Made by a program: the position numbers and the translations under genes
DNA from: an uncultured bacterium
GTDB taxonomy: Bacteria > Auribacterota > Erginobacteria > Erginobacterales > CAZKCI01
Direction of reading: 5' to 3'
Length of the DNA stretch: 32,000 bases
Assembly: GCA_964551475.1 (NCBI GenBank)
Contig: CAZKCI010000027.1
Coordinates: 45,050 to 77,049, forward strand
In this document: positions 8,459 to 23,034 of the stretch, piece after piece
Position numbering within the stretch: the first letter of the stretch is position 1
Layout: each line of letters starts with the position of its first letter
The notes under the pieces: generated by a model
Seen by the model: the letters and a program-made list of their open reading frames with translations, nothing else
Databases searched by the model: none
Told to the model about the DNA's origin: nothing

Positions 8459-8501
8459 GAATAGCCGTCCGCCCCGTTCCAGACGGGCCGGACGGCTATT
8501 C
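8459..8501 (-). terminator. GC-rich hairpin overlapping the stop codon of gene 8496..9953; candidate intrinsic terminator
   Basis: Perfect 13-bp inverted repeat GAATAGCCGTCCG (8459-8471) / CGGACGGCTATTC (8489-8501). An inner CCCGT/ACGGG pairing extends it. On the minus strand it is followed by GGTTTGAT, a weak U tract. Confidence 0.5.
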
Positions 8502-9953
8502 GACGGTGAGCTTCCCTACTTCCCAGTCCTGGATTTCGGGGTTGGTGTAGGGTTCCTTGATGAAGTCCTGCGGGTAGTTCGGCTGAATGATGTTGGTGAC
8601 TTTCTTATTTTCCACGTCCCAGTCCGCCATCTTGACGTAGTTCAGACCGCCGCCTCCGGTGTCGGCGATGATGTAGAGGCCGGCCCTGACCACGTAGTTC
8701 CCCGGAGGGGAGTCGGGGCTCAGCATCAGCGGGCCGGACTCGACCGCGATCTCCTGGTTCAGCGCCCAATTCCGGATCGGGGGATAGAGGGGGACGTCGA
8801 CGTCGATCCTCCCCGCCCGGTCGAACTCGCGGTAGACGTGGACGAACATCTTGTGGGTCGGGAAGAGGGGGGCGGTGAGCTTGTAGACCACCGAGAGCTT
8901 GAAGACATCGCCCCGTTTCACTCTGGTCGGGCCGTCCAGGCGGACAAAGGTGAGCGAGGGCTCTCCGCTGGGCCCGCCCCGGGAGCGCAGACGGAGCATG
9001 GAGAGATAGAAGCTGAAATCCTTTCCGGGCCGCGGAAGGAAAAGCTTGACCGAGCTGATGGCGGAGATGTTGATCGCCCCGCCCGTGTCCATCATGGGGA
9101 CGACCTCACGGACGGTCTCTCCGGGATTGAACCGGATTTCCTTCTTAAAAAGTCTTCCGCTCTTGTCGTTGATCTGGAGGATGACCCGCCCCCCCTCCCC
9201 CCCGGGAATGCCCTGGAGAGCGATCTCCAGGTTGTCATACAGGGACCAGTCGGCGGTACGGGGGCGGAGGGAGAAATAATTCTCGAGGGCGATCGCCGGG
9301 TATTCCCCTTCCGGTTTGATCGTGACCAGCGCCATGGGCGTGTCCCCTTCCTTGAAGAGCGAGATGGTGGCGCCTCGGGGCTCCCAAAAGATCAGGTCCT
9401 GTTCGCTGGCGAAGGTGACCAGGTCGAACTCGGTCGGCGCGGCGGCCGCTCCTTCCTTCTTCTCCGCCGCCTTGACCGAGATCTTCCCCAGGGCGAAGTT
9501 CTTGATCTCGGTGTTGGTGAGGGGTTCCCGGACAAAACGGACCCCTTTCTCGTCCGCGCTGATTTCCATCAGCCCCATCCGCACCTCGTAGTCTCCCGGC
9601 TCCAGATCGTAGGGGATGGACATCCCGAACGGGCCGACCTCGACCACCTGGCCGACCTCCCAGCGGTTGGTCGGGAAGCGGGGGAAGAAATCGGCGTTGA
9701 CACGGACCTCGTTCTGTCCGGCGGGGACGAAGTGCAGGAAAATCTTCTCGCTCTTGTCCACCGGCGCGGTGAGCTGGAAAAAAGCGGATCCGGTGAAAAA
9801 ATCCCCCTGGGAGGCCTCTGTCTGCATCTGGAAGCTGACGAAGGAAACCCGGGGGGAACCCTGGCGAAGAATGGTTTCAGCGGGGGCGGGCGAGGCGAGG
9901 AGGAGCGCCGCGAGAGACAGAAGCGCAGTCAACCATCCGGATGCAGTCTTCAT
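8496..9953 (-). CDS. Secreted protein of unknown family, built from repeated beta-rich modules (paralog of 10113..11150)
   Basis: ORF 8496..9971(-) trimmed to the ATG at 9953 (MKTASGWLTALLSLAALLLASPAPAE signal peptide). Two copies of a module of about 110 aa carry P(R/P)(F/I)(P/R)(T/N)xxW...GP...P.DxxPGxY and end in (Y/L)TN(P/T)EI(Q/K)(D/N)(W/F)..GK(L/I)(T/S)V. A central module is shared with the neighbouring gene. Confidence 0.7.
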   Translation of the reverse strand: MKTASGWLTALLSLAALLLASPAPAETILRQGSPRVSFVSFQMQTEASQGDFFTGSAFFQLTAPVDKSEKIFLHFVPAGQNEVRVNADFFPRFPTNRWEVGQVVEVGPFGMSIPYDLEPGDYEVRMGLMEISADEKGVRFVREPLTNTEIKNFALGKISVKAAEKKEGAAAAPTEFDLVTFASEQDLIFWEPRGATISLFKEGDTPMALVTIKPEGEYPAIALENYFSLRPRTADWSLYDNLEIALQGIPGGEGGRVILQINDKSGRLFKKEIRFNPGETVREVVPMMDTGGAINISAISSVKLFLPRPGKDFSFYLSMLRLRSRGGPSGEPSLTFVRLDGPTRVKRGDVFKLSVVYKLTAPLFPTHKMFVHVYREFDRAGRIDVDVPLYPPIRNWALNQEIAVESGPLMLSPDSPPGNYVVRAGLYIIADTGGGGLNYVKMADWDVENKKVTNIIQPNYPQDFIKEPYTNPEIQDWEVGKLTVE

Positions 9954-9981
9954 GATGTCAGCCCCCAGCATGAGGAATCGC

Positions 9982-10112: not shown

Positions 10113-11150
10113 CTATTTTTTAGGGCCCGTCACCTGGATTTTGCTCACCCGGAACTCCTTGAGCTCCGGGTTCTCATACGGCTGAAAATAGTACTGGAAA
10201 CGGCCGGCGACCTCCAGGGGATGGGCGAGGATCGCTTCCAGGTCGTAGGTACCCGGGGGAAGGTCGGCCGGGAGGGCGACCTCCACCGGGCCGACCTTGA
10301 CCAGCTTGCCCTCCGGCCACTGGCTGGTCGGGAAGGGGGGCGAGACCTCGGCCAGCGTGCGGACATTGCCCTCCCGGCTCAAACGGAGAAGCAGGGTGTG
10401 ATCGGATCCCAGGGGACGGCGGGCGATGAAGTAGAACGATCCCGCAAATTTCTCGCCGGGCGAGGCGGAGGCGGGGAATTCCAGACCCATGAAACGGACC
10501 AGCGCCGTCGACGGCGCTTCCTGGGCGGAAGAGGGAAAACCGATATCGGTGTAATAAAGGACCGTCTCCGAGGAGGGGTCCCAGAGGAAGAAGTTCAGGT
10601 AGCCGATCTTGCTGGCGTCGATCCTCTCCGCGATCTGGCGGACGGGGATCTCGATCCGGCGGGACTGGCCGGGGGCGATCTTCTCCGCCCTCTGGAAGCT
10701 CTGGCCGCCGACGTCCTTGACCTTGACCTTGAGATCGACGTCGAAGGACTGGGGGTTGAAAACCGTGAAGAACAGGGAGGCGGCATCCCTCCAGTCCATC
10801 GTCGGCATGGTGTCGTCGGTCCAGAGGAATCCGGGCGACTGGGAAGGGTAGTAGGTCACCCGGGCCCACTTCTCCGGCGAGTCGAAGGGGCTGTTGACGA
10901 TCTCGAAGCGGGTGCCGGCGGTCACCCAGATCTCGGCGTCTTCGGGTCGGGAGAAATCGCAGCGGAAACCGGCCATGTTCTTCGCCTTGACTCCGGAGAC
11001 GATCGCCACCGGCTCGCGCTTGATCTTTTTCAGCCAGGAGGGCAGCTGGGCGATCCGGTCCTTGAGGAAGAGGCCCAGGACCAGGAGCACCAGGACGACC
11101 CAGGCCGCGGTCATGACCCGGTTGACCCATGTTTTTCTTATGGTTTTCAC
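10113..11150 (-). CDS. Membrane-anchored protein of unknown family (paralog of 8496..9953)
   Basis: 345 aa with a GTG start at 11150; an in-frame ATG alternative is at 11114. It has an N-terminal signal anchor (VMTAAWVVLVLLVLGLFL) and a central module similar to the neighbour. The C-terminal module reads SPPFPTSQWPEGKLVKVGPVEVALPADLPPGTYDLEA ... YENPELKEFRVSKIQV. Confidence 0.7.
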   Translation of the reverse strand: MKTIRKTWVNRVMTAAWVVLVLLVLGLFLKDRIAQLPSWLKKIKREPVAIVSGVKAKNMAGFRCDFSRPEDAEIWVTAGTRFEIVNSPFDSPEKWARVTYYPSQSPGFLWTDDTMPTMDWRDAASLFFTVFNPQSFDVDLKVKVKDVGGQSFQRAEKIAPGQSRRIEIPVRQIAERIDASKIGYLNFFLWDPSSETVLYYTDIGFPSSAQEAPSTALVRFMGLEFPASASPGEKFAGSFYFIARRPLGSDHTLLLRLSREGNVRTLAEVSPPFPTSQWPEGKLVKVGPVEVALPADLPPGTYDLEAILAHPLEVAGRFQYYFQPYENPELKEFRVSKIQVTGPKK

Positions 11151-11221: not shown

Positions 11222-11249
11222 TTGACACGCTTACCTCCGATACTATACA
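11222..11249 (+). promoter_or_regulatory. Candidate sigma70-type promoter for the LysM / rotor-stator operon
   Basis: A perfect -35 TTGACA (11222-11227), a 16-nt spacer, then TATACA (11244-11249), about 48 nt upstream of the ATG at 11298. AAGGAG follows at 11283-11288. Confidence 0.45.
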
Positions 11250-11297
11250 TTGGCGTGAAGAATCCGGCGCCGGAGGCGCAGGAAGGAGACGTTCACG

Positions 11298-12215
11298 ATG
11301 CGCTTGGCTTTCCTGACCATACTCATCCTCGCGACACTTCCGGGCCAAACCCGGGCGCAACAGCCTGACTCCCCGGAGATGGCCGATCGCACCGACCTGG
11401 AGTCCGTCTGGAAGCGCTCCGGACGGACGACCCGGGTCATCGACTACCCCTTCAGCCCCCGCCCCTGGATCTCCAGCGGTCCCGACCTTCGGGACTGGGG
11501 AAACCAGGGCTACATCTTCATCAACCCGCGGATCGAAGACCGGGCGCGGACCCTTCCCGCCCCCACCCCGGAAGAGGGGCTGACCGCCGTGGAAACGGTC
11601 GAAGCGGAGGAGATCGCCCGCATGCTGGAGGAGGAAAAAGGACGGCGGGGGGCCCTGGAGGCGGAGATCAAAGCGGCGCAGGAGGAGCTCCAGGCGGCCC
11701 GGGAGAAAACCGAAGATCAGTCGGCCAAGATCTTGATTCTCGAAAACCAGATCGAGGAGATGGAAAAGCAGAAGGGCGCCGTGACGGCTGAATGGACAGG
11801 GGAGACCGGCGGAACCGGCGGACCGCCAGCCGCCGGACTTATCGTGGAGAAGACGGACACCTACCCGGTCGGTCAGGACCAGAGCCTGTGGTCGATTGCC
11901 GGGCGGGCCGAGGTCTACGGGAACCCCTTCAAATGGCTCCTTCTCTACCACGCCAACCGCGACCAGATCTTCGACCCCGACCTGATCTATCCCGGCATGA
12001 TCCTGATGGTTCCCCGCTATAAGGACCTGGAGGTTTTCCCGCCCCCGCCGGCGGAAGAGAAAGCGGCGGCGACGGAGCCGGCAGAGGAAGGAGCGGCGGC
12101 GGCGACGCCCGCTTTGACGGAGGAAACCCCTGTTGCCAAGCCCCCGGCGACTTCTCCGGCGAACGCCACCCAGGCTCCAGAAATGCCGGCGCCAAATCCG
12201 TCACCTCTGTCCTGA
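11298..12215 (+). CDS. Secreted coiled-coil protein with a LysM peptidoglycan-binding domain and a Pro/Ala-rich tail
   Basis: 305 aa. AAGGAG at 11283-11288 lies 9 nt before the ATG. Features: signal peptide MRLAFLTILILATLPGQTRAQQ, a coiled-coil segment (EAEIKAAQEELQAAREKTEDQSAKILILENQIEEMEKQK), and a LysM-like segment (YPVGQDQSLWSIAGRAEVYGNPFKWLLLYHANRDQIFDPDLIYPGMILMVP). Confidence 0.8.
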   Translation: MRLAFLTILILATLPGQTRAQQPDSPEMADRTDLESVWKRSGRTTRVIDYPFSPRPWISSGPDLRDWGNQGYIFINPRIEDRARTLPAPTPEEGLTAVETVEAEEIARMLEEEKGRRGALEAEIKAAQEELQAAREKTEDQSAKILILENQIEEMEKQKGAVTAEWTGETGGTGGPPAAGLIVEKTDTYPVGQDQSLWSIAGRAEVYGNPFKWLLLYHANRDQIFDPDLIYPGMILMVPRYKDLEVFPPPPAEEKAAATEPAEEGAAAATPALTEETPVAKPPATSPANATQAPEMPAPNPSPLS

Positions 12216-12247
12216 TCACCGATCACTGATTACTTTTTACTGTTTCT
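12213..12247. repeat. Degenerate heptamer tandem array (YGATYAC-type) between the LysM gene and the FliF/FliG-like gene
   Basis: TGATCAC CGATCAC TGATTAC TTTTTAC TGTTTCT, starting at the LysM stop codon (TGA 12213-12215). Confidence 0.7.
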
Positions 12248-12258
12248 TCCCGGGAGAC

Positions 12259-14358
12259 ATGAGCGCAGTGATCCGATCCCGCATAACCTTTCTGATCCTG
12301 GCCGCCGCCGGCTTCCTCTACGCTCCCCTTCTCCCCTCCCAGCAGAGAGCGGACGAATCCCAGGTGGAGACGGCGCTCCAGCAAAAGCTCCAGTCGATGC
12401 TGGACGTCCTGGTCGGCCCCCAGCGCACAATCGTCGACGTCGACGTCACCCTCCGGGACACCGCCACGGCGAACGAGGTGAGTAACCGCGTCCGCGCAAT
12501 GACATCTCTCTCCGGCGTCCGCACCAGCGTGAAAAAGGAGGAGGCGGGGGCCGCCGACGGAGACCTCCTGGAACCCCTGATCTCGAGCCGCCATATCTCG
12601 GTCCAGGCCGACGAAAAGCTCGCCGCCGAGCTGATCGAGAAGATCAAAACCGAGGTCCCCAAGTGGGCCCGGATCAATCCCGGCCGCGGCGACACCTTCA
12701 AGCTGGAGCTCATTCCCTGGCGGGAGATCGTCTCCCCCCCCTCCGCCACCCAGCAGAACTACCTCCTCTACTCCATTTTGGCCATGGTCGTCCTGCTCAT
12801 CCTGATCGCCGCCATCTACTTCCCCCTGAGAAAGCTCAAGATGCCGGAGACAACCCCCCCGGGAGCAATCCCCGGAACACCGGCCGCACCCCGAGGACCG
12901 GGCGAAGAGGCCGCCGGAGGCCCCGGTGAAGAAGAAAAGCGCAAACAGCGCACCGAAGAACTCGATGAATTGAAGCAGGTCTTCGCCGGGGCGGCGAACA
13001 TCGACCAGAGCGGCGTCCTGGAGGAGATCAGGAACATGATCGAGAAGGGCCTCTCCCGCACGCCGGCCCAGATCGACTCAATCCTGGAGGAGATCAAGGA
13101 CATCCTCTCCAAGACCCCCCAGGAGTCGGACACACTCCTGACCGAGATCCGCGACACGCTGGCCGACATGCTGGATGCCCAGAAGAAGCTCACGGCGATG
13201 GGCGGGCTGGGCGCGGGAACCGGGACCGGCGCGGCGGCCCCGGGCGCCGCGCCCGCCGCCGCGCCGGCCGCCCGGGCGGAAGCCGCGGGGCGGGCCGCCG
13301 GGGACGGCGGCTTCGGCCCCGAGGTGGTCGAGGTCCTGGGCAACATCGAGGACCTGATGGCCCAGCAGTTGGAGAAGACACCGGAGAGCGGCATCCTGGA
13401 CGAGCCCTTCAAGTACCTGAAGACCCTTCCGCCCGAAGACGTCGTCATGCTGGTCGAGGACGAGGAGCCGAAGCTCGCGGCCGCCGTCCTCTCCCAGATC
13501 GACTCCAAATCCGCCGCCGACGTGATGGCGGGGATCGAGGAGGAAAAGCAGTTCGAGATCGCCCGGGCGATGACGGGCCTGGTCGAGACGGAGGACCTGG
13601 CCGAGGAGATCAAGGACTTCCTGGAACGCAAGCTCAAGATCGTCCGCCTGCACAAGGACTACATCCCGGTCCTCGGTTACCGGGTCCTGGCCGACATTCT
13701 GTCCTCCAGCCGCTACGCGGTGGCCCGGGTCCTCCTGGACAAGATGGAGTCCAAGAACCCGGCCATGGCCGCCGAGGTGCGCAAACGGATGTTCCTCTTC
13801 GAGGACGTGGTCACCCTGACCGACAAGGACCTCGAGGCCCTGATCCACAACCTCCCCCGGGAGATGGTCTCCTGCGCCCTGGCCGACTCCCCGGAGGAGA
13901 TCCGGAACAAGTTCCTCCAGAACATGACCGAGCGCGCCCGCCAGATGATCCAGGAGGACATGGAGACGCTGAAGAAGGTCCAGCTCGAGAAGGACGGCAA
14001 GGAGATGAACTTCAACGAGGCCATGCTCGCCCTCGATCAGAACGTGATCGAGGAGATCTTCCGGACGGTGGACCGCAACGTGGTCAAGATGGCCCTGCGC
14101 GGGGGCTCCGACGAGGTGCGGGAGAAGTTCTTCGCGGGTCTGACCGAGCGGGCGGTGGTGATGCTCAAGGAGGACCTGGAGGTGATGGGCCAGATCACGC
14201 GCAAGCGCGCCGACGAGGCTCAGGAAGAGGTGATGAACGTCCTCCGCAAGCTCTCCAGCAAGACGCTGGAGGCCCAGCACGAGATCATCGCCACCATCCG
14301 CAAGCTCGAGAAGGAAGGGCAGATCAGCGTCGAGCGCTTTCAGGAAGAGATGGTTTAG
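12259..14358 (+). CDS. FliF-like / FliG-like fusion protein: bitopic membrane protein with a short periplasmic ring-building domain and a cytoplasmic FliG_M plus 2x FliG_C-like region
   Basis: ORF 12133..14358(+) trimmed to the ATG at 12259, with GGGAGA just upstream; the discarded part overlaps the LysM gene. It begins with an anchor helix (ITFLILAAAGFLYAPLL). The periplasmic part (about 140 aa) has FliF/YscJ-type signatures: LQSMLDVLVGPQRTIVDVDVTL, HISVQAD, INPGRGDTFKLELIPW. TM2 is YLLYSILAMVVLLILIAAIYFPL. The FliG_M-like part has EDEEPKLAAAVLSQIDSKSAADVM and the MFLFEDV hinge. Two FliG_C-like units follow: NMTERARQMIQEDMETL, and GLTERAVVMLKEDLEVMGQITRKRADEAQEEVMNVLRKL ... EAQHEIIATIRKLEKEGQISV. 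Confidence 0.8.
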   Translation: MSAVIRSRITFLILAAAGFLYAPLLPSQQRADESQVETALQQKLQSMLDVLVGPQRTIVDVDVTLRDTATANEVSNRVRAMTSLSGVRTSVKKEEAGAADGDLLEPLISSRHISVQADEKLAAELIEKIKTEVPKWARINPGRGDTFKLELIPWREIVSPPSATQQNYLLYSILAMVVLLILIAAIYFPLRKLKMPETTPPGAIPGTPAAPRGPGEEAAGGPGEEEKRKQRTEELDELKQVFAGAANIDQSGVLEEIRNMIEKGLSRTPAQIDSILEEIKDILSKTPQESDTLLTEIRDTLADMLDAQKKLTAMGGLGAGTGTGAAAPGAAPAAAPAARAEAAGRAAGDGGFGPEVVEVLGNIEDLMAQQLEKTPESGILDEPFKYLKTLPPEDVVMLVEDEEPKLAAAVLSQIDSKSAADVMAGIEEEKQFEIARAMTGLVETEDLAEEIKDFLERKLKIVRLHKDYIPVLGYRVLADILSSSRYAVARVLLDKMESKNPAMAAEVRKRMFLFEDVVTLTDKDLEALIHNLPREMVSCALADSPEEIRNKFLQNMTERARQMIQEDMETLKKVQLEKDGKEMNFNEAMLALDQNVIEEIFRTVDRNVVKMALRGGSDEVREKFFAGLTERAVVMLKEDLEVMGQITRKRADEAQEEVMNVLRKLSSKTLEAQHEIIATIRKLEKEGQISVERFQEEMV

Positions 14359-14359
14359 T

Positions 14360-14560
14360 ATGATCAAACTCACCAGACTGAACGGGCAGGAGATGATCAT
14401 CAACGCCGATCTGATCGAGCTGATCGAGGCGAGGCCTGACACCATCGTCACCATGAACACGGGGGAGAAATACATCGTCCGGGAAGCGGTGGACGACATC
14501 ATCGCCCGGATCTCCCGTTACAAGCAGAGCCTCAGTCAACCCCCACCAACCAACGAATAG
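14360..14560 (+). CDS. flbD: FlbD/SwrD family flagellar motor accessory protein
   Basis: 66 aa: MIKLTRLNGQEMIINADLIELIEARPDTIVTMNTGEKYIVREAVDDIIARISRYK. This matches the characteristic FlbD pattern (MI.LTRLNG....lN.dlIe.iE.tPDT.i.l.nG.kyvV.Es.dev). The start is 1 nt after the upstream stop codon. Confidence 0.8.
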   Translation: MIKLTRLNGQEMIINADLIELIEARPDTIVTMNTGEKYIVREAVDDIIARISRYKQSLSQPPPTNE

Positions 14561-14569
14561 GGCTGCTCC

Positions 14570-15325
14570 ATGCGCGCATCCACGATCATCGGCCTCATCG
14601 CAGCTTTTATCATCGTTTTCCTGTCCATTTTTCTCCGGGGGGGGATGCCGATGGTCATGCTTTTCGTCGACATCCCTTCCATGATCCTGACCGGCGGCTG
14701 CACCGTCGCCTGCATGTTCATCAACTTCACGCCCCGCCAGCTCTGGGATGGACTGCTCTCCTTCCGCTATTGCCTGGTGAGCAAGATGGCCACCCCAGCG
14801 GACGTGATCGAGGTCCTGGTAGAAATGGCGGTCAAGGCCCGCAAGGAGGGCTTCATGGCCCTGCGCGAGCTCTCCACCAAGGGGCGCTACCCCCTCCTCG
14901 ACATCGGCGTGGACCTGGTCGCCGACGGGACCGACCCCGAGGTGACCCGGGGCATCCTGGAGACGGTCTCCGACTACATCAACGTCAAGATCTCGGGCGA
15001 AGAGCGTTTCTGGCGAGACATGTCGATCTACGCCCCCTTCTTCGGGATGCTGGGGACGCTGGTGGGACTGATCATGCTTCTGAAGACACTGAAGGACCCG
15101 GAGACGATCGCCCCCAACATGTCGCTCGCCCTGGTCACCACGTTCTATGGCTGCGTCATCGCCGGCATCATTTGCATGCCGGTCGCGGGCAAGATCCACG
15201 TCTACAACACCAACCTGGCCTTGAGCCGCGAGATCATCATCGAAGGGATCGCGTCCATCCAGGCCGGCGACAACTCCCAGATCGTCCGCGAGAAGCTCCA
15301 GGCCTATCTCGCGGGGCTACAGTAA
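14570..15325 (+). CDS. motA: Flagellar-type stator A subunit (MotA/PomA family)
   Basis: 251 aa with 4 TM helices and a long TM2-TM3 cytoplasmic loop containing ARKEGFMALRE (the charged-residue region that contacts FliG in model systems). Also APFFGMLGTLVGLIMLL and ALVTTFYGCVIAGIICMPVAGKI, which carry the conserved prolines of the MotA channel helices. Confidence 0.9.
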   Translation: MRASTIIGLIAAFIIVFLSIFLRGGMPMVMLFVDIPSMILTGGCTVACMFINFTPRQLWDGLLSFRYCLVSKMATPADVIEVLVEMAVKARKEGFMALRELSTKGRYPLLDIGVDLVADGTDPEVTRGILETVSDYINVKISGEERFWRDMSIYAPFFGMLGTLVGLIMLLKTLKDPETIAPNMSLALVTTFYGCVIAGIICMPVAGKIHVYNTNLALSREIIIEGIASIQAGDNSQIVREKLQAYLAGLQ

Positions 15326-15423
15326 AAGTAAGGAAGACCGGGGAAACCGGGGGTGGGGCGGAAGCGCCCCCTCTCGTTTCCGCCGTGGTATATTTCCAGG
15401 AGCAGGTGGAGCGTCGATATCCT

Positions 15424-16245
15424 ATGCCCGTAGAGGACAAGCCGGTTCCGCGCGAACGCAAGCGGGTCAACCCCGACCAGGAGGGCGGCGGGCTCTCCTC
15501 CTCCTGGCCGCCCGTCTGGATGACCACCTACTCCGACATGATCACCAACCTGATGACCTTCTTCGTGCTCCTCTACGCCCTGACCATGGTGAGGATCCCC
15601 TTCGATCTGGTCAAGTTCGCTGAACCGGGAGACAAGCGCATTGTGCCCACCGGCAGCGAGGATTTTTTCTACACCGATGAAACCCAGTCAGCAGATGATA
15701 TCCAGGTTCTGGAGCAGATCGAACGGATGACGGCGGAAGACCGGCTGGCCTTGAGCGAGATGGCGACGTTCCAGGAGCAGGTGGAAGAACTGAAGCGGAC
15801 ACTGGAAAAGGGGAGGCTCGCCGACGGCGTAAAGGTGTTGATCACCGCCGAAGACGTGGTCATTGTCCCTTCCGCGCCCCTGATTTTCGCGGAAGGCTCG
15901 GACCGGATCAAAGAGTCCTTTTTCCCCATCCTCGACCGTCTGGCGGGGCTGATCAAGGATACCAAAGCCTCCGTCCGTATCGAGGGGCACACCGACGACA
16001 CGCCGATCGACCCCCTCCACCGGAACCGTTTCCCCAGCAACTACGAGCTCTCCGCCGCCCGGGCGATCGCCGTCGGCCGCTATTTTATCGAAAAGCACGC
16101 CGTGCCTCCCGAGCGGATCGCCGTGGCCGGCTACGGCCCCCTCCTCCCCCGCTTCCTGGCCAGCGAGCCCGAGAAGCGGGCGCTCAACCGCCGGGTCGAG
16201 TTCCATATTTTCATATCTTCGGCGACCCTCTCGAAAGAGGGCTGA
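15424..16245 (+). CDS. motB: Flagellar-type stator B subunit (MotB family, OmpA-like C-terminal domain), copy 1
   Basis: ORF 14770..16245(+) trimmed to the ATG at 15424, because the upstream part overlaps motA out of frame. In-frame GTG alternatives exist at 15385 and 15406. The plug/TM region WPPVWMTTYSDMITNLMTFFVLLYAL contains the conserved Asp. OmpA-like domain: VRIEGHTDDTPI, SNYELSAARAIAVGRYF, NRRVEFHIF. Confidence 0.85.
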   Translation: MPVEDKPVPRERKRVNPDQEGGGLSSSWPPVWMTTYSDMITNLMTFFVLLYALTMVRIPFDLVKFAEPGDKRIVPTGSEDFFYTDETQSADDIQVLEQIERMTAEDRLALSEMATFQEQVEELKRTLEKGRLADGVKVLITAEDVVIVPSAPLIFAEGSDRIKESFFPILDRLAGLIKDTKASVRIEGHTDDTPIDPLHRNRFPSNYELSAARAIAVGRYFIEKHAVPPERIAVAGYGPLLPRFLASEPEKRALNRRVEFHIFISSATLSKEG

Positions 16246-16250
16246 ACGCG

Positions 16251-17078
16251 ATGGGATCAAAAAGAAAAAGGATGGCCCAGGTGGAGGACAAGGGGCTGTC
16301 CGGCATGTGGCCCCCGGTCTGGATGACCACCTACTCCGACATGGTCACCAACGTGATGGTCTTTTTCGTCATCCTCTCCGCCATGCTCGTCCTCAAGATC
16401 GACGTGACCTTGATCGCCGGGCCAAAGATGCGCGGCGACAAAGAAAGGCCGACCAAGGTGAAAAAGCTAACCGCGGAACAGAAGACCATGGTCGACAATT
16501 TCCGCGCTCTGGAAGAACAGCAGATGCGGGAGGCTGCCTCGGTCACCAAGATGCAGCAGATCGGCGAGGAGATCGCCCAGTATATCCTGAAAGCCAATCT
16601 TCAGAAATTCGTCGTGGTGGAGACGACCAAGTGGAAGGTCAAGGTGGTCCCGCTCACCCCCTTCCTTTTCTCCCCCGGTCGGGCGGTCATCCGCCCGGAG
16701 TCCCGTGACTTCCTCGACCGCCTGGCCAAGTTCTTCAGCATCAACCCCGGCCAGATCCGGATCGCCGGCCATACCGATAACCTGCCCATCTACTCCGCCG
16801 AGTATCGCTCGAACTGGGAGCTCTCCGCCGCCCGGGCGGCCGCCATCATGAGGTATCTGGTGGAAGTCCACGGGCTCGATCCGAAGAGGTTCGTCGCGGT
16901 CGGCTGTGGGCCCTACCAACCGTTGGCGGACAACTCCACGCCGGAAGGGCGCAAGGAGAACCGCCGGGTGGAGATCGAGATCACTCAGGAACCCGAACCG
17001 GCGGGAAAGGCCGCAAAAGGCGGCATGGATGCGGCGGGGACCGCGGACGGCGGGGGGGCGGTCTCTCCGGCGAATTGA
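16251..17078 (+). CDS. motB: Flagellar-type stator B subunit (MotB family, OmpA-like C-terminal domain), copy 2
   Basis: 275 aa. WPPVWMTTYSDMVTNVMVFFVILSAM has the conserved Asp. OmpA-like domain: IRIAGHTDNLPI, SNWELSAARAAAIMRYL, NRRVEIEI. The start is 5 nt after copy 1's stop codon. Confidence 0.85.
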   Translation: MGSKRKRMAQVEDKGLSGMWPPVWMTTYSDMVTNVMVFFVILSAMLVLKIDVTLIAGPKMRGDKERPTKVKKLTAEQKTMVDNFRALEEQQMREAASVTKMQQIGEEIAQYILKANLQKFVVVETTKWKVKVVPLTPFLFSPGRAVIRPESRDFLDRLAKFFSINPGQIRIAGHTDNLPIYSAEYRSNWELSAARAAAIMRYLVEVHGLDPKRFVAVGCGPYQPLADNSTPEGRKENRRVEIEITQEPEPAGKAAKGGMDAAGTADGGGAVSPAN

Positions 17079-17239
17079 ACGACGGCCGGGGGGCGCGTCC
17101 AGGACGCTTCGGCCGCCGCGTGGCTTTTGCTGATCTCCAGCGCGCGCCGGATCGACTTCCCGATCTGCCAACCCGCCAGCGCCCCGAGTAGAACGCTCCC
17201 GGCGATCACTCCCATCCAGATCTTAGCCCCGATCCGCAT
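16985..17239 (-). CDS. Possible small single-pass membrane protein (speculative)
   Basis: Internal ATG at 17239 of ORF 16985..17446(-) gives MRIGAKIWMGVIAGSVLLGALAGWQIGKSIRRALEISKSH... This has one clear TM helix and G/C-rich third codon positions. However, the 3' 94 nt overlap the end of motB2 antisense, and no family is recognisable. Confidence 0.25.
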   Translation of the reverse strand: MRIGAKIWMGVIAGSVLLGALAGWQIGKSIRRALEISKSHAAAEASWTRPPAVVQFAGETAPPPSAVPAASMPPFAAFPAGSGS

Positions 17240-17319
17240 CCTTTCTCGGGGAAAGTGGGAGCGGGTGGAGATCCGTACGCGAACCTTCTGACGCCGGGGC
17301 GGCGCCGAGTCGCTTCCCG

Positions 17320-18438
17320 TCATAACCCCAGAGCCTTCCTGGCCTTGGCCAGCTTGATCCGGGCGTACTCGAAGAGGATGAGCGGATACATCCGCGGGTT
17401 GAACAGGATGTTCAGCGTGAGGAAGCACTCGTAGGTGCAGAAGCATTTGCTCTCCCGGATCGTCCGCCGGGCGGCGCGGGCCTTCTCCCCGAACCAGATC
17501 TTCTTGAAGTCATAGCCTTCCTTCCGTACGTTCCCGAGCTTCAGATCGGCGTGGAGCTCGCAAGGCAGCACGTCCCCGTTGGCGAAGAGGGCCGCCCCCA
17601 GCGTCCCCCCCTGGCAGGGCAGGATCATCCGGTTCTCCCGGATCAGGCGGGCGATGATCCGGTGCCGGATGATCCTCTTGGCGTTGATCAGGTCGGCCAG
17701 GGGGAAACGGGTGTAGCCGGTCAGCTCGCGCTGGCGCAACCCCTTCTCCATCGCCCGGGCATAACGCTCGTAGTTGTCGATGTTGAAGAACTTCGCCGAC
17801 GGCTCCATCGGCTTGCCCCGGGTGAGGAGGGTGAAGAGGGTGTCGGCCCCGAGAACCCGGGTGAAGTGGTCGTACATCTCGAGAAGTTTCGCGTCGTTGT
17901 AGGACGAGACGGTGGTCTCGATGGTGGAGGTGAAACGGGGGTATTCCTGCTCGAGCTTCTTCAGCTCGCGGAAGGTGGCGGTCGCCTTTTCGAAGAGGCC
18001 GGGGAAACCCCTGATCTCGTCGTGGTCGGCGCCGATCCCGTCCAGGGACACGTCCACCATCAGGTCGAGGCCGGGGCAGGACTTCAGGATAGACCGGGTC
18101 GTCTCCACCACCCGCTCGGTCAGCGACCCGTTGGTGGGAATGCCCACGTTCTGGACGCGGTTGTTGCGGTGGAAGATCTTGACGATCTCGGCGAGATCTT
18201 TGCGGAGAAACGGCTCGCCCCCGGTGGGAAGGAGGAAAAGGAAATCGTCCATGGAGCGGGAGACCTTCTCGATTTCTTCGATCGTGAGCTGGTCCTGGCC
18301 GGGGTCGATCCCGGCCAGCAGGCAGTGCCGGCAGCGGGCGTTGCAGGCGGAGGTGACGAAAAAGACCAGGTAGAGGGGCGAGGCGTTACCCTGGAAAAGA
18401 ACGCGGGGCGCGTATTTGAGATAGTGGAGAGATTTCAT
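17320..18438 (-). CDS. Radical SAM enzyme with a C-terminal SPASM-type auxiliary cluster domain
   Basis: 372 aa. It has the CNARCRHC (CxxxCxxC) motif near the N-terminus and GGEPFL. The C-terminal Cys-rich region is PCQGG...PCE...GN...CFCTYEC. Confidence 0.85.
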   Translation of the reverse strand: MKSLHYLKYAPRVLFQGNASPLYLVFFVTSACNARCRHCLLAGIDPGQDQLTIEEIEKVSRSMDDFLFLLPTGGEPFLRKDLAEIVKIFHRNNRVQNVGIPTNGSLTERVVETTRSILKSCPGLDLMVDVSLDGIGADHDEIRGFPGLFEKATATFRELKKLEQEYPRFTSTIETTVSSYNDAKLLEMYDHFTRVLGADTLFTLLTRGKPMEPSAKFFNIDNYERYARAMEKGLRQRELTGYTRFPLADLINAKRIIRHRIIARLIRENRMILPCQGGTLGAALFANGDVLPCELHADLKLGNVRKEGYDFKKIWFGEKARAARRTIRESKCFCTYECFLTLNILFNPRMYPLILFEYARIKLAKARKALGL

Positions 18439-21852: not shown

Positions 21853-21975
21853 TCGATGGGTCAAGGTTAGGAAATGGGTCTGGTAGATGGGCAAGGTCCA
21901 AGGTGCGTCGGGCCGGCCGGCTCGAACCTAACCCTTACCTCTAGACCAAACCCACTTCTTAACCCTCACCCATCA
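21853..21975. repeat. Palindromic intergenic element, family copy 3 (GTCGATGGGTCAAGG...); the best-formed hairpin
   Basis: The left arm is GTCGATGGGTCAAGGTTAGGAAATGGGTCTGGTAGATGGGCAAGGTCCAAGGTGCG. The reverse complement of the right arm is GGTTGATGGGTGAGGGTTAAGAAGTGGGTTTGGTCTAGAGGTAAGGGTTAGGTTCG. They match closely along about 55 nt. The central loop contains the palindrome GGCCGGCC. The right end overlaps the stop codon at 21973 and the left end is 11 nt from the ATG at 21841. Confidence 0.85.
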
Positions 21976-23034
21976 ACCAGCTTTTTCCCTGACTACATCC
22001 TTCTCTTTAACATATCCGGCCGCGCAGGCGGAGCAAACGGCCTTCTTCCCCGAGAAGGCCAGCTTGACGCCGCAGCGGCAGATCCAGCCCTGAATCCGGG
22101 CCGGGTTGCCGTAGACCAGGGCGAAGTCGGGGAGATCGCGGGTGACCACCGATCCGGCGCCCACGAAGGCGTAGCGGCCGATGGTGTGGCCGCAGACCAC
22201 GGTGGCGTTGGCGCCGATCGAGGCTCCGCGCTTGACCAGCGTCCGGCGATACTCGTTCTTGCGGGAGACCTCGCAGCGGGGGTTGATCACGTTGGTGAAA
22301 ACCATGGAGGGACCGCAGAAGACGAAGTCCTCCAGCTCCACGTCGTCGTAGACCGAGACGTTGTTCTGGATCTTCACGCCGTTCCCGATCTTCACCCGGC
22401 TTCCCACGTTCACGTTCTGTCCCAGGCTGCAGTTCTCGCCGATCCGCGCCCCGCCCAGGACATGGCTGAAATGCCAGATCTTCGTCCCCTTGCCGATCAC
22501 CGCGCCGGCGTCGACGTAGCTCGATTCATGGACAAAATAATCAGGACCGGCAGGAGAAGAAGAAACAGGACCGGCGGGAGAGGCAGGATGGGCAGGAGCG
22601 GCAGGAGAAACACGAGAAGGTCTTTTCACTATAATTTCAGGTCCTTTCTTGGGCTCGGGTTGAATCAAGGTCTGGCGATAGCGCTTGAGGAGATAAATGG
22701 TTCTTCCACAGAGAGAATCGAGATCCTGGTAAATCTCCGAGGAGAAAAGCTTGTCCTCAATACAATCTTCCAGATCACCGAGAAGTTCTTCCGCTGATCC
22801 CTCGGAAATCTCCAGGAATCTCGCCAATTCCAGCCGGGATTGTCTCCGATAGCCTTCTTGGATATTTTGTTTGATTGAACGGGCGGCGCTGTTCATCTGT
22901 GAAATGCGCCTCATCTCGGAGTGCGGAAATGTTTTTGTAATCCCGAATATCTTTCTCCGTAGTTCCGACGCCGCCTGCCAGAAATGCCATGTACGGTAGC
23001 TCTGGGTCTTGTAATCTTTCTTGGGGCTCTCCAT
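21973..23034 (-). CDS. In-frame fusion: N-terminal four-helix-bundle module (23S rRNA intervening-sequence protein family) plus a C-terminal hexapeptide-repeat sugar N-acetyltransferase (WbpD/WlbB-like)
   Basis: 353 aa. Residues 1-128 ([76 protein letters not shown]) match the four-helix-bundle family pattern. A Pro/Ala/Ser linker covers aa 129-164. From aa 165, [28 protein letters not shown]...VFTNVINPR...[15 protein letters not shown] is typical of left-handed beta-helix acetyltransferases. There is no stop codon and no in-frame ATG between the two parts. Confidence 0.75.

Follow-up and report, generated by a model that had tools for sequence, protein, structure and literature searches.

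We examined a window of 32,000 nucleotides (nt) of DNA from an uncultured bacterium (GTDB lineage Bacteria; Auribacterota; Erginobacteria; Erginobacterales; CAZKCI01; GenBank assembly GCA_964551475.1, contig CAZKCI010000027.1, positions 45,050 to 77,049 of the forward strand). Within it, six open reading frames (ORFs) on the + strand form a cassette (11298-17078; all coordinates are window positions) that is built from the protein families of the flagellar rotor and stator, yet as a system matches no described kind. Gene 1 (11298..12215) encodes a secreted coiled-coil protein of 305 residues with a C-terminal LysM-like peptidoglycan-binding domain and is followed by the 699-residue rotor fusion that is central to this study (gene 2, 12259..14358). 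Gene 3 (14360..14560) encodes a FlbD/SwrD family protein of 66 residues (Pfam FlbD 4.8e-27) and gene 4 (14570..15325) a MotA/PomA-type stator A subunit of 251 residues (Pfam MotA_ExbB 1.2e-23). Two MotB paralogs, MotB1 (gene 5, 15424..16245; 273 residues) and MotB2 (gene 6, 16251..17078; 275 residues), complete the cassette, each with a transmembrane (TM) Asp (D38 and D30, respectively), a plug and an OmpA-like domain. The first-pass annotation of this DNA, which was made from the letters alone, had described six co-directional genes 1-98 nt apart, and the gaps are indeed 43, 1, 9, 98 and 5 nt. Third-position GC content of 0.80-0.89 in the cassette frames marks them as coding in a window of 63% GC, and the motB1 start at 15424 agrees with the JGI gene call on an identical contig.

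Two further elements of that annotation stood in part. The good promoter that it placed before the cassette corresponds to a sigma-70-like candidate (11222..11251, + strand; TTGACA, 18 nt, TACATT; 10 of 12 consensus positions matched), which is well placed 47-76 nt upstream of the first ATG, with a ribosome-binding site, GGAAGGAG, between it and the ATG at 11298 on the same strand. However, one TTGACA-type site was seen in 6.4 kb against 0.8 expected from shuffles, and because one match per 6.4 kb is chance level, the candidate carries no weight as support. Gene 1, annotated as a LysM protein, does carry a signal peptide, a coiled coil and a C-terminal LysM-like domain, but the LysM call is sub-threshold in NCBIfam (4.4e-8, residues 185-240, below cutoff), and the Pfam LysM match in the ortholog of locus L007 is weak. 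Orthologs of gene 1 open the cassette in all loci, at 32-52% identity. Terminator-like sites are no more frequent in the region than in shuffles. The 98-nt gap between motA and motB1 contains a perfect 6-bp GC hairpin (15355-15380, + strand; GGGGCG GAAG CGCCCC) followed by a T-rich tail, which could be an intra-operon attenuator or a processing site setting the MotA:MotB ratio.

The rotor fusion and its stator

The rotor fusion comprises, in order, a signal or first transmembrane segment (TM1), a FliF RBM3-like domain, a second transmembrane helix (TM2), a cytoplasmic linker, a FliG middle domain and two copies of the FliG C-terminal domain, all read on the + strand. Both FliG domains exceed their Pfam gathering scores, so that the FliG-like torque domain fused to a membrane protein, as first annotated, is borne out. 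The middle domain (13432..13638; residues 392-460) matches FliG_M at 1.5e-10 and aligns to Thermotoga maritima FliG, and FliG_C matches at 3e-39 over two stretches; the NCBIfam fliG equivalog model gives 158 bits against a cutoff of 226.7. Copy 1 of the C-terminal domain (13741..13989; residues 495-577) is preceded by MFLFED, an instance of the MFxFED hinge motif, and has the torque helix TERARQMIQED. Copy 2 (14026..14328; residues about 590-690) aligns to residues 139-215 of 1lkv, is better conserved than copy 1 and keeps all the classic torque-helix charges (ALRG..TERA..KEDLE..R), whose Escherichia coli FliG equivalents are K264 (ALRG), R281 (TERA), D288/D289 (KEDLE) and R297 (R650 of the fusion). 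Residues T629, E630, R631, A632, E638, D639 and R650 are invariant across 27 family members, and the torque-helix residues persist in distant relatives that carry one FliG_C only. The FliM-binding EHPQ motif, which canonical FliGs from the same search retain, reads EEPK in the window fusion and EEPR, EDDR, EAAK, ETDE or EDNQ in its relatives.

No FliG_N match to the fusion was found in Pfam. The cytoplasmic linker that precedes the FliG domains (12826..13431) consists of Gly/Ala/Pro-rich stretches around conserved helices (residues about 224-314), with columns L276-L305 conserved in the family alignment. Its conserved helical stretch aligns with the second half of canonical FliG_N at an hhalign probability of 52% over 64 columns, and the linker may be a vestigial FliG_N.

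The N-terminal part of the fusion, about 190 residues, is made up of the signal/TM segment, a periplasmic domain of about 130 residues and a TM helix. The periplasmic domain (12343..12723; residues about 29-155) ends in an RGD..PW motif and has the predicted topology alpha-beta-(insert)-beta-alpha-beta, modelled there by AlphaFold2 (AF2) at pLDDT 70-85. Three independent lines support, at family level, the prediction that it is FliF RBM3, the builder of the S-ring. Foldseek comparison with the PDB retrieved the FliF RBM3/S-ring entries 6sd3, 6sd1, 7d84 and 8ftf (probability 1.00, TMt about 0.5), with ~15 entries of this kind ranked behind FliG entries and a single modelled complex of FliF with YlxF. 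When a profile built from 15 family N-domains was searched against 177,635 PDB sequences, it matched only two (E 0.03), both of them FliF, over the RBM3 start and the RGD-containing end. Finally, PF08345 (YscJ_FliF_C) was matched by 11 of 15 family members, at best with 3.9e-6. The FliF-like ring-building domain that had been annotated within 12259..14358 therefore holds, at family level only. PF01514 (YscJ_FliF) did not match the fusion, which lacks RBM1 and RBM2, the domains that house the export gate and rod in flagella; of the three, only the RBM3-like domain is present. TM2 (12760..12825; residues 168-189, model helix 163-194) has a core, LILIAAIYFP, that is nearly invariant in the alignment.

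The cassette MotA aligns end to end with PomA (PDB 8brd; residues 3-247, 5e-39), and PomA R88, K89 and E97 are matched by R, K and E. Its best NCBIfam models are PomA (6e-52) and MotP (1.5e-50), both below their equivalog cutoffs; taken together, the flagellar PomA/MotP/MotA models match at 1e-27 to 6e-52, and TolQ only at 1e-3. By sequence comparison, the cassette MotA is thus of the flagellar PomA-like type with a full cytoplasmic torque-generating region. In both MotB paralogs, MotB_plug and OmpA are above the Pfam thresholds, and the channel Asp (MotB1 D38, MotB2 D30) is kept in 14 of the 14 sequences compared. With FlbD, the stator parts are complete, as the first reading of the sequence had it. 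MotB1 and MotB2 share ~34% identity and fall into two separate orthologous groups across all loci. Given that each is closer to its positional ortholog elsewhere, the paralogs arose by a duplication older than the family and neither copy has since been lost, which makes a MotB1/MotB2 heterodimer inside MotA5 a reasonable proposal. The Pfam match of FlbD (PF06289) spans positions 1-57 of 59, and the gene lies directly upstream of motA and is kept in every locus. SwrD, of the FlbD family, is a hexameric ring predicted to bind MotA (PMC13232269).

Distribution, partner genes and polysaccharide setting

We found 27 close relatives of the fusion, which share 50-100% identity with it. When 1.84 billion cluster representatives were searched exhaustively, only a handful of more distant full-length relatives (P0028-P0037) came up ahead of the canonical FliGs of 335 residues. 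Among 185,579 species, each represented by one genome, there are at least 13 family loci, and the same scan supplied 67 canonical fliG loci. Record titles of the family loci read Candidatus (Ca.) Erginobacter occultus, "PVC group bacterium", Ca. Omnitrophota, "Uncultured Planctomycetia/Planctomycetales" or unclassified metagenome-assembled genomes (MAGs), and the carriers are a rare group of uncultured PVC-type bacteria. The co-occurrence check that the first-pass annotation had proposed gave the same gene order, LysM-fusion-FlbD-MotA-MotB1-MotB2, in about 20 loci at 30-100% protein identity, with the motB pair inverted in one locus. Beyond the cassette, no flagellar genes were found in the 32-kb window, nor in about 20 related loci up to 10 kb from the cassette, which extends to the relatives the absence of FliM/FliN, export, rod, hook and flagellin genes first noted for the window. 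The full module is carried by the Ca. Erginobacter occultus MAG, and none of the Ace Lake Auribacterota MAGs (88-100% complete), this one included, is reported to encode flagella (PMC9324843). In P0050 (787 residues), which came from the search of cluster representatives, a full-length FliF (RBM1-3) is naturally fused to FliG_MC and EHPQ is intact; P0114 (345 residues), from the same search, matches the N-terminal part of the family profile only (positions 16-368) and could be a truncated or split form.

The conserved unit exceeds six genes, adding two paralogous beta-sandwich proteins that are predicted to bind glycans. U491 (8496..9971, - strand) is secreted, with a signal peptide and three beta-sandwich domains, the central one CBM11-like (CBM, carbohydrate-binding module). 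U345 (10113..11150, - strand) is a periplasmic beta-sandwich protein with an N-terminal membrane anchor, related to U491 by BLASTP at 7e-16. Neither matches a Pfam or NCBIfam family. The AF2 model of U491 (pLDDT 77.5) retrieved in Foldseek xanthanase modules (3.5e-9), the CBM-like domain of a GH50 agarase, CBM11 (TMt 0.58-0.60) and SGBP-B, and the protein is predicted to be a non-catalytic glycan binder. U491 orthologs adjoin the cassette at 28-60% identity, and U491 homologs share contigs with fusion homologs; U345 orthologs adjoin it in L003, L008, L009, L011, L019 and others. Both are adjacent to the cassette wherever the flank is long enough, upstream and divergent in Auribacterota-like loci, downstream and convergent in AT-rich relatives. 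In U491, the N-terminal beta-sandwich is similar to the C-terminal one, and both are similar to the C-terminal part of U345; these repeated modules point to internal duplication within a family that has no Pfam or NCBIfam model.

A small membrane protein of about 112 residues (16985..17323, with the upper coordinate also given as 17446; - strand) is probably part of the conserved unit as well. Its gene converges on motB2 and overlaps the 3' end of the latter, and the product has a basic (K/R)(V/I)(K/R)(V/I)(K/R) motif (KVRVR-type) followed by one TM segment. Genes for proteins of 84-117 residues with the same architecture were called at the equivalent site in L002, L003, L005 and L006-L009, and in AT-rich relatives the gene stands in an operon with those of U345 and U491. 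We grade this protein as tentative because similarity was detected only within each clade.

The canonical fliG loci offer a reference for the origin of the cassette. In these 67 loci, sampled from Bacillota, Thermoleophilia, spirochaetes and others, flbD (27 loci) and motA (32), usually with motB, lie 6-10 kb (mostly 7-9 kb) downstream of fliG on the same strand, and none contains LysM, U491 or U345 homologs. In such operons, the content between fliG and flbD is the fliH-to-flgE block. The cassette can accordingly be read as a fla operon that would have lost the fliH-to-flgE block and the 5' half of fliF and gained a fliF-fliG fusion. Its colinearity with fla operons of the Terrabacteria/spirochaete type favours reduction and exaptation over a primitive state.

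The first-pass annotation had placed the cassette inside an exosortase/exopolysaccharide (EPS) locus; the polysaccharide setting proved general, and the exosortase did not. Every cassette locus is polysaccharide-related, and a Metallophos gene is also frequent. In the window, the neighbours are a GT2, a Bac_transf priming transferase, EpsI, an EpsH-family exosortase, two polysaccharide deacetylases and several GT4s, together with a radical SAM/SPASM enzyme, a Wzx-type flippase and a PMT_2 protein; the housekeeping genes ispG, rseP and dxr stand on the right side of the locus. The exosortase matches Exosortase_EpsH at 2.8e-43 and the 8TM_EpsH model with 116.9 bits (cutoff 105.55), and EpsI accompanies it. 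Exosortase and EpsI occur only in Auribacterota-like loci. The divergent loci L007-L009 showed no exosortase up to 10 kb from the cassette. All three carry Wzy, Wzz, Bac_transf and GT4; L007 also has Poly_export, and L008 and L009 have GH123. It is therefore polysaccharide genes, and not an exosortase, that accompany the cassette in general. A regex scan of ORF tails found no PEP-CTERM tail in any window ORF, so that the module proteins are not obvious exosortase substrates.

Several neighbouring genes deserve separate mention. The window exosortase (entries 5745-6629 and 5134-5814, both - strand) scores far below all named-subtype cutoffs (XrtA 119 vs 208 bits) and may be an unclassified subtype with substrates encoded elsewhere. 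The radical SAM/SPASM gene (17320-18438, - strand) sits between the motor module and the first GT4. By tblastn it was found in the window's own contigs (L001/L002), L013 and L014, and not in the other loci scanned; the neighbourhood of L008 and L009 has a B12-binding radical SAM gene instead, and a radical SAM enzyme beside the module may be a recurrent theme. A hexapeptide acyltransferase (21973-23034, - strand) carries an N-terminal 23S rRNA-intervening-sequence protein domain (PF05635, a four-helix bundle). Given that its orthologs in L003, L005 and L006 have 202-209 residues and no PF05635, the fusion or insertion is specific to the window's lineage. A coiled-coil membrane protein of 324 residues (2706-3680, + strand) has no confident family, with weak T2SSM or DUF4407-like hints; its gene lies directly upstream of Bac_transf, where it is conserved in Auribacterota-like loci, and the protein might serve as a chain-length or co-polymerase-type component. 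A horizontal-transfer island was considered for the locus and rejected, as GC content is uniform (0.58-0.70) across the window and the housekeeping genes ispG, rseP and dxr flank the locus.

Readings of the cassette

We consider it probable that the cassette is an autonomous, non-flagellar, flagellum-derived rotor-stator machine, which would be driven by proton motive force (PMF). The fusion has lost what is needed only in a flagellum (RBM1/RBM2, a FliG_N match and EHPQ), which supports such a machine, and features that define a flagellum were looked for and found missing, so that we do not class the cassette as a flagellar motor. In the mechanism that we propose, the fusion would oligomerise through RBM3 into an inner-membrane ring with a FliG_MC ring beneath it. 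Stators of MotA5 and a MotB1/MotB2 dimer, fixed to peptidoglycan and assisted by FlbD, would harness ion flow to press on the torque helices of FliG_C and so rotate the ring, and the LysM/coiled-coil protein might act as a wall-anchored scaffold or bearing. On the evidence of their conserved neighbourhood only, U345 and U491 would receive the periplasmic output and act on the polysaccharide of the locus, which they might export or extrude, spool or organise, or on which they might pull to produce surface or gliding-type movement. Whether the whole scheme holds, namely a new class of rotary machine in which FliF(RBM3)-FliG rings are driven by MotA5(MotB1/MotB2) stators and deliver torque to polysaccharide via CBM-like binders, is a more tentative matter, to which we give somewhat less than an even chance; the polysaccharide-handling output is held with lower confidence than the autonomy of the machine.

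Several points weigh against this reading. At the position of PomA E96, the cassette MotA has an R. The fusion's own N-terminal 234 residues gave no FliF match in Pfam, which is why the FliF assignment was made at family level, and the AF2 model of the whole fusion is poor (pLDDT 57.7). Ring formation, rotation and the MotB heterodimer are steps that we infer, and the polysaccharide link is drawn from gene neighbourhood. Genome-wide absence of flagellar genes is likewise deduced, from the published account of the Ace Lake MAGs (PMC9324843) and the losses in the fusion, and that same account reports that Ca. Auribacter fodinae, of the same phylum, encodes flagella (PMC9324843).

The cassette might also be a non-rotating or stalled device that senses PMF or load, in which engagement of stator and FliG controls glycosyltransferases or polysaccharide export; we regard this as unlikely. 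Flagellar motors feed into EPS or holdfast control, and Bacillus subtilis EpsE binds FliG. In keeping with such a role, the cassette lies constantly within EPS loci that include GT2 and GT4 genes, no obvious axle or output shaft is encoded, and the duplicated FliG_C could serve as a docking platform. However, the module contains no signalling domain (no PilZ, GGDEF, kinase or receiver), and its conserved partners are periplasmic glycan binders, not cytoplasmic enzymes. The kept torque-helix charges, plug, Asp and peptidoglycan anchors also fit active torque generation.

Quite improbable, in our assessment, is that the cassette supplies the motor part of a real, highly divergent flagellum whose export, rod, hook and filament genes are located elsewhere in the genome. 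Such a flagellum would lack RBM1 and RBM2, a clear FliG_N and a conserved EHPQ in its rotor, and would have kept its motor genes among polysaccharide loci and CBM-like partners across deep divergence, in a group where Ca. Erginobacter is reported without flagella (PMC9324843). To this may be added, as a weak argument, that no second FliG locus from cassette-bearing assemblies appeared among the 80 best genome hits. What speaks for a flagellum is that all four core families (FliF, FliG, FlbD, MotAB) are flagellar, that the gene order mirrors fla operons, and that at least one Auribacterota MAG is reported with flagella (PMC9324843).

A decaying remnant of a lost flagellar operon, without present function, would explain colinearity with canonical fla operons whose middle has been deleted, but it is effectively refuted by the conservation pattern and retains a negligible probability: the ORFs are intact, their order is kept in about 20 loci to about 30% identity, functional residues are invariant, the two MotB paralogs are older than the divergence of the family and have both persisted, conserved partner genes have been newly gained, and codon-position GC is typical of expressed genes. 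Equally hard to credit is a Zorya-like or other MotAB-derived defence or transport system (of the ZorAB, ExbBD/TolQR, AglRQS or GldLM type), for which the weak ZorB matches of the MotBs (1e-11 to 4e-17) reflect shared MotB/OmpA homology, whereas MotA has no ZorA match and fits the flagellar models far better than TolQ, and no ZorC/D-like genes are present. PADLOC gave no ZorA and nothing beyond generic ZorB/MotB similarity, and a defence system was rejected on that basis. We know of no FliG or FlbD partners in the ZorAB, ExbBD/TolQR, AglRQS or GldLM systems.

An autonomous flagellum-derived machine remains, then, the reading that we favour. The first-pass annotation knew of no described natural machine with this gene set, and the literature that we consulted on FliF-FliG fusions, stator evolution and 5:2 motors likewise holds no account of the gene set or of a non-flagellar FliG. 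If the favoured reading is true, the flagellar rotor-stator pair is detachable and reusable, as ExbBD, GldLM and ZorAB show for the stator alone, and FliG would here be known for the first time as a rotor outside the flagellum. The cassette would then provide a minimal motor found in nature, about six proteins in size, whose rotor stoichiometry is set by the fusion, and it would suit structural and single-molecule torque work. It would also make a modular step in flagellar evolution, by loss and exaptation, directly testable, and would point to a so far undescribed step at which poorly known PVC-group phyla couple energy to the handling of polysaccharide.

Comparison with known systems

Exosortase (XrtA/EpsH-EpsI) loci resemble the window in its EpsH-family exosortase, EpsI, Bac_transf, deacetylases, GT4s and flippase, but the window exosortase falls below the XrtA cutoff and the window holds no PEP-CTERM substrate. 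To our knowledge, motor genes are not among the components of PEP-CTERM/exosortase loci. The covalent join of FliF to FliG is shared with engineered and natural full-length FliF-FliG fusions, among them the Salmonella/Vibrio FliFG proteins (PDB 8z4d) and the natural fusion P0050. These keep RBM1-3 and work in complete flagella, and full-length fusions are reported still to form S-rings (PMC11481574). In contrast, the cassette fusion has RBM3 only, and a long linker stands in place of the FliF_C/FliG_N joint.

The 5:2 ion motors (ExbBD, TolQR, AglRQS, GldLM and ZorAB) offer the closest parallel in use, as they too put a MotAB-type motor to non-swimming work in the envelope (PMC9389320). However, their stator homologs lack the flagellar torque-generating interface (TGI), and none uses FliG or FliF, whereas the cassette has a flagellar-type stator that would drive a FliG ring. 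A recent survey classes TGI-bearing MotAB stators as "flagellar" (PMC12505986), and in the literature surveyed both FliG and such stators are treated as exclusive to flagella.

With the flagellar motor core, the cassette shares homologous RBM3, FliG_M, FliG_C, MotA, MotB and FlbD domains, conserved torque-helix and stator charges, the MotB Asp, plug and OmpA anchor, and the fliF-fliG ... flbD-motA-motB order of operons of the Terrabacteria/spirochaete type. It differs in having no RBM1/RBM2, clear FliG_N or EHPQ, and no FliM/N, export, rod, hook or filament genes nearby. In the cassette, unlike in the flagellar core, FliF and FliG are covalently fused, FliG_C is duplicated and two MotB paralogs are obligate, and the partners are LysM and CBM-like proteins encoded in polysaccharide loci.

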